From the sequence record PZ452581.1: a DNA stretch of 64,000 bases; one strand, written 5' to 3'. The number at the start of each line of letters is the position of its first letter. Within the stretch, counting starts at the first letter, position 1. Positions 25,171-45,654 of this stretch are shown here, in pieces. The position numbers and the translations under genes are program-made. The notes beneath the pieces are model-generated. The model made no database searches. It was not told the origin of the DNA and worked only from the letters and a program-made list of their open reading frames with translations. This DNA is from a phage.

Positions 25171-25370
25171 TTTGAATGCTCTATAATTAATTTTAAGGCT
25201 TCTTCACGCACCAACTTGTCTAATGGTATATGCCCAGTTTTAATTGTGTAAGCTTTGTGGAGCTGATTAGATAAGAGCTCGTATGTGAGCTCTTTGTCAT
25301 AATCTTTAAATAGCTGGTCAATACGTTTCTTGCGGGCTTTCTTAAGCTGGCGTTTATTTAAACGAGCCAT
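25167..25370 (-). CDS. Hypothetical basic protein
   Basis: 67-aa lysine/arginine-rich ORF. Confidence 0.45.
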   Translation of the reverse strand: MARLNKRQLKKARKKRIDQLFKDYDKELTYELLSNQLHKAYTIKTGHIPLDKLVREEALKLIIEHSK

Positions 25371-25888
25371 TAATAGCCTCTGTCTTGACGAGCGAAGTTT
25401 TCAGCATTTTTCAGATAATAAAGTTTAAATATTTCTTCAGCTGACATTCCAAGAGCAATAAATTTATTCATGAAAAAGTGAAATTGGTCAATCAGTTCAA
25501 ATTTAATTTCAAGCTGATCTTCAGGAGATAAGTCTTGAATTTTCTTGGATTGCATTTCAGAATAACGTTTCTTCCAAGGTTTCCATACAGCAGAAGCTTC
25601 TTTTTCACCATTACTCATACCACCAAGAGAAGTATATAGCTCGCGAGTTTCGTCTGCGATATAATCGTCTTGGTTTCGCAGCCAAGCAAGAACTTCTCCT
25701 GCAGTTTCAAGTGAATCAGGATGACGATTTGTTTCTGGTTTATCATTAGCCAAACGAATCTGTAAATGCCGCTGCATGTCAAGCATAACCTGCAATGGGT
25801 CAATACTGTGCATAATATACTCAGCATATGCACGATTTGCTTTATCAACACCTTCGATCAAATGAGCACATTCATTAAAGTGAGCCAT
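25370..25888 (-). CDS. 56: dCTP pyrophosphatase (dCTPase) gp56
   Basis: Track ORF 25370-25981 trimmed to internal Met MAHFNECAHLIEGVDKANRAYAEYIMH matching T4 gp56 N-terminus; MazG-like. Confidence 0.88.
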   Translation of the reverse strand: MAHFNECAHLIEGVDKANRAYAEYIMHSIDPLQVMLDMQRHLQIRLANDKPETNRHPDSLETAGEVLAWLRNQDDYIADETRELYTSLGGMSNGEKEASAVWKPWKKRYSEMQSKKIQDLSPEDQLEIKFELIDQFHFFMNKFIALGMSAEEIFKLYYLKNAENFARQDRGY

Positions 25889-30628: not shown

Positions 30629-30991
30629 TTAAAAGAATTTAAACTTTTTCTTTGACCTTTTATTAAATGCATCTTGTAGTTGCATTGTAATACATTTTTC
30701 TACATGAGGAGCTAACTCAGCTTTTCTTTCTTGGTCAAGAACAGCAAAGTCCATTACAACCTTTCCATCAACCCAATCCAGTTTAGTTACATACACAATG
30801 TGTGTAGAACCATCTTCTAGTTTAATGACAATCTCCTGGATAACATTTTCCATGGCAGATTTAATTATCTTAAGAGATTCATTAAAAAGACGTTCTTTTC
30901 TTTCTTCTTCCCCCTCCGAAGAGGGGGATTCATCGATAATTTCTAGATCTAAGTCTAAATCATCTTTATTCATTAAATTCTTCCATATCAC
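30629..30991 (-). CDS. 40: gp40 head vertex assembly chaperone
   Basis: 120-aa ORF between 41 and uvsX. Confidence 0.6.
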   Translation of the reverse strand: MIWKNLMNKDDLDLDLEIIDESPSSEGEEERKERLFNESLKIIKSAMENVIQEIVIKLEDGSTHIVYVTKLDWVDGKVVMDFAVLDQERKAELAPHVEKCITMQLQDAFNKRSKKKFKFF

Positions 30992-32147
30992 TTAACTGTT
31001 CGAGGTCAGTTTCTAAATCAGCTGCTGATTTACTTTTACTTTCTGGGGATTTAAATTTTTCAACTTTTGAGTTAATTAATTCATCAACTTCAGCTTCAAC
31101 AATTTCATTACTATCAATAGCACCTAACTGATAAGCACGTTTAATAGCATCTCGGAATGGTTGATGCTTAAATAAAGGACCCCAGAATGTAGTGCAGTTA
31201 GTATCTTTTGCACGCCAAGATTTTTCTTCGCGAATCATCTCGCCGGTTTCTTCATCAAGAAATTCACGAGCATACCAACCATTTTTAGGTTTTACTACAA
31301 ATCCTAATTCAAGAGCCATATCTAACAATCCAGAATAAGGATCGATGCCACCGTCAAATTTAACATCAATAAAGAATTTACTTTTTTCTTTAACGGTACG
31401 AGATTTTTCTACATTTAGAACAAATTGATACCCCTGAAGATCAGAACCATCTTTAATCTGGCGCTTACCGATAATGAATACAGTATCAGCCGAATACATT
31501 ACGCCTGTACCACCTGTCATCACGGTTTTACTAAACATTTCAATTGTTTCAATTGTGTGGTTAACCGCAACACATGGAATGTTTTTAATACTAAAATAAG
31601 GAGTAACAATACGGAATAATGACTTCAGTGATTTAGCACGAGTCATATCTGCCACAGATTTTTCATTCAAGGCATCTTCCGTTTCTTTCTTAGAAGCCAT
31701 ATTACCAATTGAGTCGATGAATACAATAACCTTTTCACCACGCTCAATAGCTTCAAGCTGATTCACCATATCAATTTTCAGCTGTTCAACTGACTGGATT
31801 GGTGTATGAATTACACGTTCCGGATCAACTCCCATGGATCGCAAATAAGCTGGAGTAATACCAAATTCGCTATCATAGAATAAACAAACCGCATCAGGAT
31901 ATTTGTTCAAATACGCCGCAACCATAGTCAAAGACATATTTGATTTAAAGTGTTTAGAAGGACCTGCAAAAATGGTTAAACCAGACTGCATTCCACCATC
32001 AATCGCACCAGAAATAGCGATATTGAGCATTGGGATTTTTGTACGGATTACATCCTTTTCATTAAAGAATTTAGATGTAGTCAGTTCAGCAGTCATTTTA
32101 GAAGTGGAAGCTTTAATCAAACGGGATTTTAAATCTGCAATAGACAT
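30966..32147 (-). CDS. uvsX: Recombinase UvsX (RecA-like)
   Basis: 393 aa; Walker A GPSKHFKS; close to T4 UvsX with scattered substitutions. Confidence 0.95.
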   Translation of the reverse strand: MSIADLKSRLIKASTSKMTAELTTSKFFNEKDVIRTKIPMLNIAISGAIDGGMQSGLTIFAGPSKHFKSNMSLTMVAAYLNKYPDAVCLFYDSEFGITPAYLRSMGVDPERVIHTPIQSVEQLKIDMVNQLEAIERGEKVIVFIDSIGNMASKKETEDALNEKSVADMTRAKSLKSLFRIVTPYFSIKNIPCVAVNHTIETIEMFSKTVMTGGTGVMYSADTVFIIGKRQIKDGSDLQGYQFVLNVEKSRTVKEKSKFFIDVKFDGGIDPYSGLLDMALELGFVVKPKNGWYAREFLDEETGEMIREEKSWRAKDTNCTTFWGPLFKHQPFRDAIKRAYQLGAIDSNEIVEAEVDELINSKVEKFKSPESKSKSAADLETDLEQLSDMEEFNE

Positions 32148-32224
32148 TCATTTTTTCCATAGGCATCATTATATTTTCCTCACTGGTTAAAGATAGGGTA
32201 ATTATAACACAATAAATTTAGGCA

Positions 32225-33073
32225 TTAATCAACTACTATTGGATGAATAGCATTAAACTTATGAAACGCTTCTGATTTTTCTTTGCGCGAAACACACATG
32301 CGAAGAACCTTTAATGGCTCGTCTTCTTCACCCAACGATTTTCGTTTTTCAATATTAGAAGTTTTCCAACGAGCTTGCTCTGGAAACTCTTTATTGATTT
32401 GCTCAAGAGCTCTATTATGTTTTGAATTACTACGAATTGAACTACATCCGCCAGGAGCTTGTGCTTTTCCAGACACAACCAGATATTTGAACAAGGCCAA
32501 ATGCGGATAACCTTGATTAATTAAATTGAGAAATGCATACATATCTTCGCACAAATCAATTTTTCCATACCCAATTTGTTCTGTCGTAAGTTTTCCAAGG
32601 TCATACCATGTATTCGTGAATCCATATGAATTTTCACGATAATTACCCCAAGATGAAGTAATTTTAAAAATAGGTAGACGAGCATGACCGTGATAATACC
32701 CGCAATCCATGGCATCTTCCACGTATTGAATCAATTCATAGAACTGTTCACGAGTTAATTGATTAATTTTATCTACGCAGCGACGATCATCTTTCTTTCG
32801 CATTGAACTCATACGAATAGTAGTATCATCATCAATCATCCAGATTCGTTGACCTGCATACATATCAGTAATTGCTTTACGAGTACCAGCAATTCCATTA
32901 ACATCATCAGGAATAGTTATAATTTTAGCTCTAGACCCGTAAGCGTCATAATAAGCTTTTTCTTCGTGTTCACGTACTACAATATGAGGTTCATAATCAG
33001 ATGGAAACATATCAAGGGCAGAAACTGCCCCTACGCGTTGATAGCTTGGAATTACGAATTGAATCATTTCCAC
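32225..33073 (-). CDS. GT-A fold glycosyltransferase at the T4 beta-gt locus, putative beta-alpha-glucosyltransferase of T2/T6 type
   Basis: 282 aa with N-terminal VIPSYQR and DDD (DXD-type) motif; unlike T4 beta-gt (351 aa, GT-B) which starts MKIAIINMGNNV. Confidence 0.55.
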   Translation of the reverse strand: MEMIQFVIPSYQRVGAVSALDMFPSDYEPHIVVREHEEKAYYDAYGSRAKIITIPDDVNGIAGTRKAITDMYAGQRIWMIDDDTTIRMSSMRKKDDRRCVDKINQLTREQFYELIQYVEDAMDCGYYHGHARLPIFKITSSWGNYRENSYGFTNTWYDLGKLTTEQIGYGKIDLCEDMYAFLNLINQGYPHLALFKYLVVSGKAQAPGGCSSIRSNSKHNRALEQINKEFPEQARWKTSNIEKRKSLGEEDEPLKVLRMCVSRKEKSEAFHKFNAIHPIVVD

Positions 33074-33804
33074 TCACCGTTATAATCTTTTTTCGCAATA
33101 TGAGTTTCGCCAGTTTTCCACCAATGGTCAACCAAATAAAAATGACGGGAATACACATGAAGGCTCCCGACATTCCATATAATGGAACCTGCTTTATACT
33201 GACGAGTTGAATCACCTGCATTCAAATCAGATACTAATTTATCTAGTACATATTTTTGCCATGCATAATCATTACGGAATCCGAAGACCACGTCATTTGA
33301 ACGCATGTTAACCACTGCATTAATTTTCTTATCACGAATCAGGTACTGTACTGTATTAGTACACATGAAATCCGACATGCCATCTTTATTGTAGTCAAAC
33401 TGCATGGATGGACGAGTATAAATCATGATACCGCGTCGAGAATCAGGATTTTGACCAAGTTCAGCTAAACACATATCATACTGGGCATAGTTATCTTCTG
33501 ACCAGATGGCCCAACCATAATTCGAGTTAATTTCGCCTTTAGAAGATGCTACCTGCTGCCAAATCTTCGGCGTTTCACCTGGAATATCTTTAACAAACAG
33601 ACTTTGAGACTTATACCATTCAAGTTCACGCTGAATGTATTCATCATTAAGAGAGCCAAAAATAAAAGGTTCATCTGCTACAAATGATGCACCAATAATT
33701 TCAATAGTTTTAACCCCGGTTTTATCAATTACGAAATCTTTTTCCTTTAATGCAAGACCCAAATCAAGACGGATTTCTTCAACTGTCATATAATCGTTAA
33801 TCAT
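33064..33804 (-). CDS. 42: dCMP hydroxymethylase gp42
   Basis: 246 aa; matches T4 gp42 (…GIMIYTRPSMQFDYNKDGMSDFMCTNTVQYLIRD…). Confidence 0.95.
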   Translation of the reverse strand: MINDYMTVEEIRLDLGLALKEKDFVIDKTGVKTIEIIGASFVADEPFIFGSLNDEYIQRELEWYKSQSLFVKDIPGETPKIWQQVASSKGEINSNYGWAIWSEDNYAQYDMCLAELGQNPDSRRGIMIYTRPSMQFDYNKDGMSDFMCTNTVQYLIRDKKINAVVNMRSNDVVFGFRNDYAWQKYVLDKLVSDLNAGDSTRQYKAGSIIWNVGSLHVYSRHFYLVDHWWKTGETHIAKKDYNGEWK

Positions 33805-33957
33805 TTAAACCTCAATTGATGCATTCATATTTAATTTGTAACAGTAATAAACTCCAACCTATAATAAGTGGCGGAATCATAAGAGGAACTGTTACGCTAT
33901 AGTATATACTTATTATAATCATCAAGATTAAAAGCAATACTGCTAAAATTTTGCTTT

Positions 33958-34209
33958 TCATTCCTTCTCTCTGATGATAATTACTTGATTTTGCTGTACA
34001 GATTTTTTAGTTTCACCTGCAATTGACCAAATAAAAGTAATAAACCAACCAATGATTGACCAGTTAAACAGTAAAGATGTGAAAAAGATTCCTACTGTCG
34101 ATTTTGACCCACGCATCAAGGCGATGAACCATGGAAGCATGTATATAATAATAGCCAACACGCCTGAAACTAAAACCATAAAAATTGAACCTGCTACTAA
34201 AGTTTCCAT
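33958..34209 (-). CDS. imm: Superinfection immunity protein Imm
   Basis: 83-aa two-TM membrane protein at the T4 imm position. Confidence 0.8.
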   Translation of the reverse strand: METLVAGSIFMVLVSGVLAIIIYMLPWFIALMRGSKSTVGIFFTSLLFNWSIIGWFITFIWSIAGETKKSVQQNQVIIIREKE

Positions 34210-34216
34210 GTTTTCC

Positions 34217-34597
34217 TCACTTAGTCAAATTTTTTACACATGAATTATAAGAATTCACTACATACTCCATCGGAGCATTTTTACCTGTACGCCATTGGTA
34301 ATTATTAGCCCAATTGGCCCAAAGCTCAGCGCAGTAGTTTTCAATTTTTTCTTCGCGTGTAATTACATCTGAATTACGATATGCTTGAGCAGATTCATCT
34401 GGGCGAATAGCTTCGTCAAAATTCGCCTGCATCTGTTCTACTGTCTGTTTTGGAGCTTCTTTATAACACTTAACATTAGGATTATAAAATTTGCTTGAAC
34501 AGTTTACAATTTTTCCTACATCAGATTGATTTACTACCGGTCCTTGAGCTACACAGCCAGTAAGACCTAATGCAATAACCAAAATAGCGATTTTCAT
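34217..34597 (-). CDS. Putative lipoprotein (imm.1-like)
   Basis: 126 aa with lipobox LTGC. Confidence 0.55.
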   Translation of the reverse strand: MKIAILVIALGLTGCVAQGPVVNQSDVGKIVNCSSKFYNPNVKCYKEAPKQTVEQMQANFDEAIRPDESAQAYRNSDVITREEKIENYCAELWANWANNYQWRTGKNAPMEYVVNSYNSCVKNLTK

Positions 34598-34607
34598 AAT
34601 AATTTCC

Positions 34608-34844
34608 TCAAATACAAGTAGTAATTACTCCAGTAGTGCTTACACAGGTATTACCTAATTGAACACCCAACGTTCCATTAGTATTCATATGAAGATTATC
34701 ATCAATTTTTGTTGATACTTTACCATTCATGTGAATAATAGTATTAGATTCAATCACATTCTGAGTGTCATTTTCAATATCAATAAATGGAACAGTTGCT
34801 AATGCAACTAAACACACTGCTAAACAACCATAAACAATTTTCAT
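34608..34844 (-). CDS. Small secreted/membrane protein
   Basis: Track ORF 34608-35033 trimmed to internal Met MKIVYGCLAVCLVALATVPF (signal-peptide-like) downstream of an early promoter. Confidence 0.45.
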   Translation of the reverse strand: MKIVYGCLAVCLVALATVPFIDIENDTQNVIESNTIIHMNGKVSTKIDDNLHMNTNGTLGVQLGNTCVSTTGVITTCI

Positions 34845-34874
34845 TTTATTCTCCAAATCCGTATCAGTTGATAG

Positions 34875-34910
34875 TTGTATAGTACCATGGAAGAACGGGG
34901 ATGTAAACAG
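34875..34910 (-). promoter_or_regulatory. T4-early-type promoter
   Basis: Minus-strand GTTTACATCCCCGTTCTTCCATGGTACTATA with conserved leader. Confidence 0.55.
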
Positions 34911-34989
34911 TTTTGTGAAAAAATTTTTAATGAATTTACAGGACCTAGAATCATCTATTTTTCCTAAGTATAGATTTATATTACTTGTA

Positions 34990-35022
34990 TGAAAAAGGGA
35001 CCCGGAGGTCCCTAGATTTATT
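34990..35022 (-). terminator. Hairpin terminator downstream of gene 43
   Basis: Minus-strand GGGACC-UCCG-GGUCCC followed by a T-run, immediately after gp43 stop. Confidence 0.6.
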
Positions 35023-35025
35023 CTA

Positions 35026-37722
35026 TCAGCCAAACAGGAAGTCTAACGAAGCTTTTTCCTCATAGTCCATACCTGCCGATTCACACATGCCCGCAAGCGG
35101 TTTAACAAACGATTTTTGGAACAAAGTTGAGTAGTCAATCCAAGATAGTACGTCAGAACGAATTTCTTTTGGAAGTTCCGTACCCGATGGCCAAGCAATG
35201 CACTTGTCACCAAATGGATTTCCCTCACGTAACGGAAGAACCATTACCTTATTTCCATCCAAAATTGGAGCTACACCTAAACCGCTAACAGCTCGACGAT
35301 AAGTTAGCACCCCACGAATATGGAACGGGCATTTAAACCCTGGCCAACCTTTATCGTCATATTTCGCTATATCGTTCGCGGTTTTTACTTCAGCAATAAC
35401 TTTATAGTCAAGTTGACGGTATTCTTTCTCAAAGTTCTTATAGTATTCTTGGACAGACTCTTCGCCTTCCTGAAGAATACGACGAATACTTTCTTCGAGA
35501 GCTTCTTGTACTGCTTTTGGTGTTGAACTCTGCTGAGTTTCCATACCCATGATTTTTAGATGTGGTTCAGCAAATCGCTTATCTTCCATATCATAAACGT
35601 TCAGAGCATAACGTTTTTTCGCTTTCCAAAATCCACCAACACCCTTTGAACCAAGTGGAGGGCAAGAAATAGCTTCACGGTCCATATGCATCAGATGCTC
35701 GCGATTATTCATATAATCACATAACTCACGATATGCAACATCAATCATAGGTTCCATCTTTTTCTTACCAAACTGATTCATGAATTCAACTAAATCATTT
35801 TGTTCTTTAAAGCGGTCAAGACCTACTTTTTCAATTACTTTATCTACACAAACATATACCGAATCAGTATCACCCGCGGCGATGAAATCTTCACCATCAG
35901 TTCCACATACTTTATTTAGATATTCATTAATTTTACGAGCAATCCACTGAATACCAACTTGACCGAAAATTGTGATAGCAGTAGCATTTCGCAAATCATA
36001 GTAACGGAAATGAATATTACCAAGAGCACCATAAAGACTGTTAATAAGAATTTTACGGTTCAGCTGATTTGTGTTAGCAAGTGTAGCTGCTTTTTCACAT
36101 TCTTCGATCAGACTATTAAGAACAGATTCAGTGTAATTCGATAATTTGTTTAAGAAATCATCATTGAACTTAACATATCGTTCAACTTCTGGTTTAGTTG
36201 AACAAGACCCTGCACCTTTCATAATAATCTTTTTAATAGCTTCGGCATTCATTTCTTCAGCGAACATTTTCTTTTTCCAATCTTTACGCTGGAAAAATAC
36301 TTTAGCGATTTCCTTTGGAATGATACCTTCTTGATGCTTATCATACATCCATCCATTCGGAGAACAAGAATATTCATCACTTGGCTTAGGAGCTGTTCCT
36401 GCGATATATTCATGAATTGGATGAACTTTAAATTGTCCACGAATAGTTTCAGGACTAATGTTAACCTGACGAATAATGCTAGGATATAGAGACGTCAAGT
36501 CAAAACTCATAATATATCGACGAGCAATTGGTTTAGGTTCAAACACAAATGCACCCGGAAAACTCTGTTTAACGTGCGAACCTTGTTGAGGAATAACCTT
36601 GTGTTCACCTTTCAATGAGTTAAAAATAATAGCATCCCAAGTTTTAATAGGACTCATTACACCGGAAAAAGGCATTTTAGCATAATAAGACATACTTAAA
36701 ACTAGATCGATAAACCCGCGAATTTTATCAATTGCTTGAACTGATTCTACGTCAATGATGTTATAACTAATGTATCGTTGATGATTAGTCTCACGAAGTT
36801 TATTAATAGGACCATCATACGGTAATTTACCTTTTTTGGTTTCATGTTGAGCAACTGATTCCAAAGAGAATGACGGCAAATTAGTAAAAGCGAATTTCTT
36901 GTACAAATCTAAATAATCAAGAATAGATACGCCATCAATAGAATAAATTTCTTTGCTACCGTACATATTTTGAATTAGTTTAGATTTTACTCGACCGATT
37001 GGAGAGAAGCGTTTCATACTACGTTCACCGAGAACCATTTTAACGCGATTCATGATATACGGAACGTCAAATCCCTCAATATTCCAACCAGTAAAAATAG
37101 CAGGTCGTTTCTGTTCCCAGAGATTGATATATTCCATGAGCATATCACGCTCATTATCGAATGGCATATAAATTACTCGGTCAAGAATTTCTTGAGGAAC
37201 TTCATCACCACCTTCACAGTCAAGCTTAGCAGCTAACTTTGCATCCCATTTTGATACTGAACCGTACATTGAATTCAACAAATCAAAGACGTAAAAACGG
37301 TCGTCAATTGAATCATAATGAGTGATAGCATCAATTTCATATTCTGCTTTCATTGGGTCAGGAAATTTATCACCAGTAACCTCAATGTCACAGTTAGCTA
37401 CACGAACAAATTTTCGGTCATAAACAATTTCTGAACCATATGTATCACTGATATAAGCGAGTTTAAAATCGTTCATACCGAGAGCTTCGAGACCGATGTC
37501 TTCCATTCGCTTCATCCAGTCTCGTGCATCTTTCATTGATGGAAATTTTTGAGGAGCACAGTTTTTACCATAAATGTCTTTGTATTTTGACTCTTCCTTA
37601 CAATGCCTAAACATAGTCGGAAGATATTCTACTTCACGAGTACGTTCCTTTCCGTTTTCATCAATATAGCGCTCAACAATGTTATTTCCGACTGTTTCGA
37701 TAGAGATATAAAATTCTTTCAT
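35026..37722 (-). CDS. 43: DNA polymerase gp43 (family B)
   Basis: 898 aa; exonuclease and polymerase motifs (DIE, SLYPSII, YGDTDS); same length as T4 gp43. Confidence 0.97.
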   Translation of the reverse strand: MKEFYISIETVGNNIVERYIDENGKERTREVEYLPTMFRHCKEESKYKDIYGKNCAPQKFPSMKDARDWMKRMEDIGLEALGMNDFKLAYISDTYGSEIVYDRKFVRVANCDIEVTGDKFPDPMKAEYEIDAITHYDSIDDRFYVFDLLNSMYGSVSKWDAKLAAKLDCEGGDEVPQEILDRVIYMPFDNERDMLMEYINLWEQKRPAIFTGWNIEGFDVPYIMNRVKMVLGERSMKRFSPIGRVKSKLIQNMYGSKEIYSIDGVSILDYLDLYKKFAFTNLPSFSLESVAQHETKKGKLPYDGPINKLRETNHQRYISYNIIDVESVQAIDKIRGFIDLVLSMSYYAKMPFSGVMSPIKTWDAIIFNSLKGEHKVIPQQGSHVKQSFPGAFVFEPKPIARRYIMSFDLTSLYPSIIRQVNISPETIRGQFKVHPIHEYIAGTAPKPSDEYSCSPNGWMYDKHQEGIIPKEIAKVFFQRKDWKKKMFAEEMNAEAIKKIIMKGAGSCSTKPEVERYVKFNDDFLNKLSNYTESVLNSLIEECEKAATLANTNQLNRKILINSLYGALGNIHFRYYDLRNATAITIFGQVGIQWIARKINEYLNKVCGTDGEDFIAAGDTDSVYVCVDKVIEKVGLDRFKEQNDLVEFMNQFGKKKMEPMIDVAYRELCDYMNNREHLMHMDREAISCPPLGSKGVGGFWKAKKRYALNVYDMEDKRFAEPHLKIMGMETQQSSTPKAVQEALEESIRRILQEGEESVQEYYKNFEKEYRQLDYKVIAEVKTANDIAKYDDKGWPGFKCPFHIRGVLTYRRAVSGLGVAPILDGNKVMVLPLREGNPFGDKCIAWPSGTELPKEIRSDVLSWIDYSTLFQKSFVKPLAGMCESAGMDYEEKASLDFLFG

Positions 37723-44451: not shown

Positions 44452-45654
44452 TTATTTTGTAATAATGTCAAACTGCTCTTTAAAGCAGAAGCTTGAATCT
44501 TGATGCTGATACAAAAATTCATAAGCTTTTTCACGTTCACGGTCATAAAGAGCTCGGTCAGATGACAGTTCTTTAATACGTTCAAATGTTGATTCCATGT
44601 CATTTTCATCAAACCAAACGATACCGCTATCATGAGAAATTAACGGAGTATTATCAACACGGAATTTTAAATTTTCGCCAGTAGATTTCCAAAATACTGG
44701 AATTGTTCCACATGCACCAAGCTCGAGATGAGTATATTCTAAAGAACGTTGTAGATATTTTTTATCTAATTTACTCAGCTGATAACCAAATCCGGATTTA
44801 CTCATGCGTTCAAGCATTTCGCTATTTACATAACGGTCAAGAATTTGCGTTGGCAAATTAGGAGCAATTTTAATTTGGTCTACTTGATGAAGACGATAAT
44901 ACTCGTATGGAATTCCTTTTTCTTTAATAGGAATGAACGCTGGAGAACGTTCCAGACCTTCCATAATAGTACTTAGTCCTGCAGGTTTAAGATGTTTTTC
45001 ATGAAAATCAAACATCTGATAAAAACCTTTCCATGTAGTAGTACGACCAATCCAACGGTTGATATTCATGTTAATTTCAGAAACATCTTTCCAGTAGGTT
45101 GATCGAACCTTCGCAATATCCATAGGAGGCTGAAAGTTGTATACGGTCGGTGCTTCTTCAACATCATCAAACAGTGAAACAGTTTCTGGATACCATTCTT
45201 TCATTAAAACTTTATTAAAATCACCATTATCAGAATGGCTAAAAATAACATCAGCTCGACGAACAGTTTCTTCTAATCCCAAATTTCGGCGCAAAGAAAG
45301 AGAAGAATGGTCATGTTGATAAACTACAACACGAACCGAAGGTTTAATGTTATCAATAATTTTTTTATAGTTATTAATAGTGTCTTCTTCGACTGAAGTA
45401 GCAGGAACTGAATTGATAATTAGAATATCACAATCATTTACCAGCTTAAGTGTTTTATCGTATTCTTTTGCCAATAAAACCGGAATTGAAAATGACTTAT
45501 AATCATGCGCGCAATTACGAGTAAATGATTTATCTTTAGCATAAACCAAAGTTACTTCATGACCATTTTTAATAAACCAATCACGTTGCTCAAGAGAAAA
45601 TTTAGTTACGCCACAACCTTCAAGACCTCGAGCCATAAAAATGCATACTTTCAT
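44452..45654 (-). CDS. agt: Alpha-glucosyltransferase (hmC DNA alpha-glucosylation)
   Basis: 400 aa, MKVCIFMARGLEGCGVTKFSLEQRDWFIKNGHEVTLVYAKDKSF matches T4 alpha-gt. Confidence 0.9.
   Translation of the reverse strand: MKVCIFMARGLEGCGVTKFSLEQRDWFIKNGHEVTLVYAKDKSFTRNCAHDYKSFSIPVLLAKEYDKTLKLVNDCDILIINSVPATSVEEDTINNYKKIIDNIKPSVRVVVYQHDHSSLSLRRNLGLEETVRRADVIFSHSDNGDFNKVLMKEWYPETVSLFDDVEEAPTVYNFQPPMDIAKVRSTYWKDVSEINMNINRWIGRTTTWKGFYQMFDFHEKHLKPAGLSTIMEGLERSPAFIPIKEKGIPYEYYRLHQVDQIKIAPNLPTQILDRYVNSEMLERMSKSGFGYQLSKLDKKYLQRSLEYTHLELGACGTIPVFWKSTGENLKFRVDNTPLISHDSGIVWFDENDMESTFERIKELSSDRALYDREREKAYEFLYQHQDSSFCFKEQFDIITK

Follow-up and report, generated by a model that had tools for sequence, protein, structure and literature searches.

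A T2/T6-type beta-glucosyl-HMC-alpha-glucosyltransferase gene between uvsX and gene 42 of a Tequatrovirus

The beta-glucosyltransferase (beta-gt) of phage T4 and the beta-glucosyl-HMC-alpha-glucosyltransferase (ba-gt) of phages T2 and T6 both make beta linkages, and the T4 enzyme uses UDP-glucose as its donor (PMC6024577, PMC13216743). The TAGT gene, as ba-gt is also called, is syntenic with T4 beta-gt (PMC13390438), and the T6 TAGT has a GT-A fold and groups as a sister to GT2 (PMC13216743). When T6 lacks ba-gt, its DNA carries alpha-glucosyl-hmC only (PMC11078745). For gentiobiosyl-hmC, the published shares of hmC are 5% for T2 and 72% for T6 (PMC6024577), and about 40% for the Durham phages (PMC13390438). 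In wild Tequatrovirus phages that have alpha-GT and TAGT but lack beta-GT, LC-MS detected hmC, alpha-glucosyl-hmC and alpha-gentiobiosyl-hmC in a ratio of about 1:2:2, and no beta-glucosyl-hmC (PMC13390438).

We analyzed a 64,000-nucleotide stretch of a phage genome of about 167 kb (sequence record PZ452581.1), referred to here as the window, with positions counted from its first letter. A 25-kb stretch of the window is ~96-97% identical to phages such as ESh33, Sf22, and PinkRuby, identifying it as an ordinary Tequatrovirus. The gene order is uvsX, ba-gt, 42, a 49-aa ORF, and imm. We observe the same order in T2, T6, PP01, and PinkRuby, apart from the 49-aa ORF, which is annotated in PinkRuby only. 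The features of the locus are:

30966..32147, minus strand: uvsX recombinase, flanking ba-gt on its downstream side and fixing the locus by synteny; PHROG 97 (UvsX-like), 7.4e-110
32225..33067, minus strand: ba-gt (ggt, TAGT) CDS, beta-glucosyl-HMC-alpha-glucosyltransferase, 280 aa from ATG
33064..33067, minus strand: ATGA, the ba-gt start codon overlapping the gene 42 TGA, read directly from the sequence
33068..33073, minus strand: GTG GAA, two extra codons of the mechanical ORF, probably untranslated; in annotated homologues the CDS begins two codons later, at the ATG
33064..33804, minus strand: gene 42, dCMP hydroxymethylase making hm-dCMP; PHROG 160 (thymidylate-synthase-like), 4.2e-66; syntenic with the annotated gp42 of T2, T4, T6, and PP01

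The mechanical ORF (32225..33073, minus strand) runs for 282 aa from a GTG, with the N-terminus MEMIQFVIPSYQR and a DDD further in. An 843-nt CDS from the equivalent ATG is annotated in T2, PP01, and PinkRuby, as is its 4-nt overlap with gene 42. Because the ATG overlaps the gene 42 TGA and the homologues are annotated from it, we rejected the GTG at 33073 in favor of the ATG at 33067, making 280 aa likelier than 282. The original prediction had placed a 282-aa protein between uvsX and gene 42; its location is borne out by the PHROG matches of the neighbors, and its length gives way to the shorter product. Judging by the ATGA overlap, ba-gt and gene 42 probably share a transcript, and their translation is probably coupled. 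Scanning positions 32000-34300 for promoters and terminators was uninformative: promoter-like sites numbered 10, with 9.7 expected, and the single terminator-like site equals the expectation of 1.0. The coding sequence includes a hairpin at 33013-33033 that is in no excess over chance.

Several further observations concern the surrounding sequence. The spacer from uvsX to ba-gt (window 32148-32224, 77 nt) contains TGTTATAAT, an extended -10-like element read only by eye; about 12 nt upstream of it, ATGCCTAA resembles a T4 middle-promoter MotA box, also by eye and with the generic scan at chance. On the other side, a strongly hydrophobic 49-codon ORF (window 33812-33961, minus strand, MKSKILAVLLLILMIIISIYY...) occupies the interval that separates gene 42 from imm, with a 4-nt overlap between its start and the stop of imm. 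Its reading frame is also uninterrupted in T4, T2, T6, and PP01, where the substitutions are conservative and the ORF is unannotated; in PinkRuby it is a hypothetical. Upstream of imm.1, a mechanical 141-aa TTG ORF occupies window 34608-35033 on the minus strand, where the hypothetical genes of relatives (PP01, T2, PinkRuby) encode 78-85 aa. Gene content between imm.1 and gene 43 varies among T2, T6, PP01, and PinkRuby.

Over 280 aa, the window protein has an identity of 98% with T2 ba-gt, 97% with T6 ba-gt, and 99% with the PP01 protein. It matches PHROG 842, 'beta-glucosyl-HMC-alpha-glucosyltransferase', at 2.3e-89 across profile positions 3-269 of 270. It also matches Pfam PF20691 (TAGT) at 38.8 bits against a gathering threshold of 27.5, with residues 5-209 on profile positions 2-205 of 205. 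A Pfam RNA_binding match at residues 218-273 was disregarded as under the cut-off (E = 0.16). The original prediction had proposed alignment with both the T2/T6 enzyme and T4 beta-gt, and the second comparison finds the window protein unrelated to the 351-aa T4 protein: the best BLASTP match has E = 3.3 over 8 residues, and PF09198, the T4 beta-gt family, was not matched in the Pfam scan. At the codon level, synonymous and non-synonymous differences number 31 and 7 against T2, 32 and 9 against T6, and 15 and 2 against PP01. Since most of these differences are synonymous, the ORF is a maintained coding sequence under purifying selection and not a chance ORF.

Two rounds of homologue search yielded 50 relatives, nearly all with PF20691. 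In a 47-sequence alignment with identity down to 13%, the invariant columns are R11, R63, D79, D80, and D81, all of which are found in the window protein. Two motifs hold four of these residues:

33035..33052, minus strand: IPSYQR motif, residues 6-11, after strand beta1 (E3-7 in the model); I6 and P7 are nearly invariant
32825..32833, minus strand: DDD, residues 79-81, DXD-type, directly after strand E74-78 in the model

Both motifs had been named in the original prediction as typical of a GT-A fold, and R11 and D79-D81 within them prove to be invariant across the family. An AlphaFold2 model built on that alignment (mean pLDDT 93.1, pTM 0.91) is a one-domain alpha/beta/alpha structure of the Rossmann type and can be superposed on solved GT-A enzymes. 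Its best structural matches in the PDB are all GT-A enzymes and none are GT-B, confirming the predicted fold. Foldseek against viral models placed the ba-gt of Klebsiella phage PKO111 on top (TM 0.95) and TAGT proteins after it; the TAGT matches in BFVD have TM scores of 0.66-0.76. Searching PDB sequences for a solved relative gave a sole match at chance level (E = 0.93). The position of the DDD in the model is the one at which GT-A enzymes carry their DXD and, as the fold suggests, this motif would bind the metal and the UDP-sugar. From general knowledge of GT-A enzymes, R11 would contact the UDP part of the donor. The modeled fold fits an inverting GT-A enzyme with the known chemistry, in which UDP-alpha-glucose would give a beta linkage.

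Two T6 GenBank records have apparent inactivating lesions in ba-gt, which raises the question of whether the window ORF could itself be a decayed or inactive remnant. We consider this extremely improbable: the ORF is full length, retains 5 of 5 invariant residues, and differs at only ~1% of positions from the representative of a 485-member cluster. The T6 lesions are of separate kinds. In MH550421 (minus strand, extracted-segment 3951-3953), codon 10 of ba-gt is an amber TAG seen in that record only. In AP018814 (also NC_054907; minus strand, extracted-segment 3735-3740), one GAT is lost in frame, changing DDD to DD, a lesion common to phage HP3.2 (OP978391). With apparent null lesions of two kinds in the T6 records, ba-gt may be lost in propagated stocks.

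The genes that would make the acceptor for this enzyme are also in the window, all with strong PHROG and DNA matches. In addition to gene 42, these are:

44452..45654, minus strand: alpha-glucosyltransferase (a-gt), predicted to make the alpha-glucosyl-hmC acceptor for ba-gt; 400-aa ORF; PHROG 2888, 7e-222
25370..25888, minus strand: gene 56-type dCTPase / NTP pyrophosphohydrolase, predicted to keep dCTP out of phage DNA; PHROG 173, 2.7e-44

The a-gt gene has 99.8% nucleotide identity to the PinkRuby alpha-glucosyltransferase, and the PinkRuby homologue of the gene 56-type ORF is annotated as NTP pyrophosphohydrolase. All three partners had been assigned in the original prediction, and the PHROG matches agree. 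A tblastn search of the 64-kb window for T4 beta-gt and for the T4 homing endonuclease segA found no homologue of either better than E = 1.4. As to a beta-gt in the part of the genome beyond the window, Shigella phages are absent from the 29 records with a T4-type beta-gt, whereas the closest relatives over the 25-kb stretch include two of them, ESh33 and Sf22.

In the pathway expected from these genes, gp56 and gp42 would replace dC with hydroxymethyl-dC, and alpha-gt would put alpha-glucose on ~75% of hmC residues. Using UDP-glucose, ba-gt would then attach another glucose to the alpha-glucose through a beta-1,6 linkage, yielding gentiobiosyl-hmC. The virion DNA would thus contain bare hmC, alpha-glucosyl-hmC, and gentiobiosyl-hmC, with no beta-glucosyl-hmC. 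The identity of the gene, its locus, its fold, its intact invariant residues, and the presence of its partner genes are established in this analysis; donor, acceptor, and linkage would follow the literature on near-identical enzymes. The best explanation overall, which we hold to be nearly certain, is a T2/T6-type ba-gt, an inverting GT-A enzyme, in a phage whose DNA has hmC, alpha-glucosyl-hmC, and gentiobiosyl-hmC and lacks beta-glucosyl-hmC. A second glucosylation of the T2/T6 type, instead of T4-type beta-glucosylation, had been anticipated in the original prediction, and the 97-98% identity to published, near-identical enzymes supports it.

We also considered a role as a primary DNA glycosyltransferase, in which the window protein would modify 5hmC itself and give mono-glycosyl-hmC. 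The protein does belong to Pfam TAGT, and other members of this family are reported to act directly on 5hmC. A solitary TAGT, with neither alpha- nor beta-GT, is found in 288 of 753 phage genomes (PMC13216743), so some TAGT members must use another acceptor. However, the window protein shares 98% of its residues with the T2 enzyme and 97% with that of T6, where deletion of the gene leaves alpha-glucosyl-hmC only (PMC11078745), and LC-MS of similar phages detected no beta-glucosyl-hmC (PMC13390438). Additionally, T2 and T6 keep ~25% bare hmC despite having ba-gt (bioRxiv 10.64898/2026.02.25.707755). With 97-98% identity to enzymes of known deletion phenotype, direct glycosylation of bare hmC is very unlikely.

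How far a T2/T6-type ba-gt diglucosylates the DNA is a separate matter. Enzymes that are 97-98% identical span 5% to 72% gentiobiosyl-hmC, making the amount unpredictable from sequence. One difference between the T2 enzyme and the window protein falls on an invariant residue: both T2 records examined in full (LC348380, AP018813) have His at ba-gt residue 11. This codon in LC348380 (minus strand, extracted-segment 4105-4107) corresponds to window 33035-33037. In a seed-centered GenBank search, the T2 His allele (CAT) was found only in 7 T2 records and in SV76, whose length equals that of T2, and the Arg allele of the window in at least 187 other phage records; these 55-nt allele searches give lower bounds, as nearby polymorphisms also break the 28-nt seed, and the search would miss His encoded as CAC. 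A degenerate pattern scan of IMG/VR (CAY, which includes CAC) found 0 His and 5 Arg alleles. R11H therefore correlates with the low gentiobiosyl-hmC of T2 (~5% vs 72% in T6), and by sequence T2 ba-gt may be a hypomorph through R11H. Our limited literature search found no paper linking R11H to the low T2 level.

These data bear on two readings of the activity of the window enzyme. It could contribute little, as in T2, leaving alpha-glucosyl-hmC and bare hmC with a few percent gentiobiosyl-hmC; T2 itself, with a 98% identical gene, reaches only ~5% (PMC6024577, PMC13390438). We regard this as unlikely, given that wild isolates with an equal gene set have ~40% gentiobiosyl-hmC (PMC13390438) and that purifying selection acts on an intact ORF. 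Moreover, the T2-like low-activity state is not favored because the window keeps R11, with H at this position only in the T2 lineage among the records examined. The opposite reading is that the window enzyme is the fully active wild-type allele, that the gap between T2 and T6 comes from R11H in the T2 lineage, that the phage is heavily diglucosylated like T6 and the Durham phages, and that substantial gentiobiosylation is the default in wild Tequatrovirus. This could be so, but taken together we lean somewhat against it.

The T2/T6-type arrangement is common. The ba-gt DNA was found in 475 phage records at ≥90% identity, of 480 with any match, and the annotated copies are mostly named beta-glucosyl-HMC-alpha-glucosyltransferase. 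By comparison, alpha-gt was found in 545 records and T4-type beta-gt in 29, mostly stocks of T4 itself and phages closely related to it (RB55 and RB59, for example). Likewise, a T4-like pair of alpha-GT and beta-GT occurs in 6 of 753 phage genomes (PMC13216743). A ba-gt between uvsX and gene 42 is therefore the norm of the genus, and T4 is the exception. It follows that the wording of the original prediction, a gene in place of T4 beta-gt, is apt as a description of synteny only and does not mark a peculiarity of the present phage. We also observed that RB55 (KM607002) and RB59 (KM607003) carry a gene 100% identical to T4 beta-gt that is mislabelled 'beta-glucosyl-HMC-alpha-glucosyl-transferase', a label that could mislead name-based surveys.

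The identity of ba-gt predicts the cytosine modifications of the phage DNA, hence how it encounters modification-dependent defenses. T6 without ba-gt is more sensitive to the glycosylase Brig1, and T6 DNA resists Brig1 in vitro (PMC11078745), which supports the original suggestion of altered sensitivity to glucose-dependent restriction. The deglucosylase BapA is unable to remove glucose from gentiobiosyl-hmC, and the ~25% bare hmC of T2 and T6 is a substrate of the 5hmC glycosylase Brig3 (bioRxiv 10.64898/2026.02.25.707755). All three glucosylated forms, alpha-glucosyl-, beta-glucosyl-, and gentiobiosyl-hmC, are targets of GmrSD (PMC13216743). Each element of this picture was already published, the prevalence of the gene included; papers of 2024-2026 cover the synteny, the GT-A fold, gentiobiosyl-hmC by LC-MS in similar phages, and effects on defenses of the Brig1, BapA, and GmrSD type. 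The present analysis thus adds no new biology, and its use lies in annotation and in the choice of therapeutic phages.

Among known systems, the window gene is closest to T2/T6 ba-gt, with which it shares 97-98% identity, the slot between uvsX and gene 42, and the partners a-gt, 42, and 56; the ATGA overlap with gene 42 is common to T2 and the window. Relative to the window, T2 ba-gt has the substitutions R11H, S23T, K92R, I101V, K226R, P251S, and V278A. The T6 GenBank records differ by the amber codon 10 or the DDD-to-DD change, neither of which is in the window gene. With the wider PF20691 TAGT family, the window protein shares IPSYxR, R63, DDD, and the predicted GT-A fold, but it is only 13-30% identical to most TAGTs. 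The family takes its name from a genomic association with TET/JBP dioxygenase, which is not a membership criterion. In the window, hmC would be made as a nucleotide by gp42, not by a TET/JBP dioxygenase on DNA, and by analogy with the T2/T6 enzymes the acceptor would be the alpha-glucose on hmC, not the hmC hydroxyl. T4 beta-gt (PF09198) resembles the window gene in its syntenic slot next to gene 42 and in acting on hmC-containing phage DNA. However, it has a GT-B fold (PMC13216743), in contrast to GT-A here, and its acceptor is bare hmC, whereas that of ba-gt would be the glucose of alpha-glucosyl-hmC; T4 also has segA between uvsX and beta-gt, and the window does not. Finally, the cellular GT-A enzymes, mostly GT2 (WrtF 9omh, TarP 6h1j, and the catalytic domains of cellulose and hyaluronan synthases), are 7-15% identical to the window enzyme, which differs from them in having no membrane or polymerizing domains and in its expected substrate, modified DNA.
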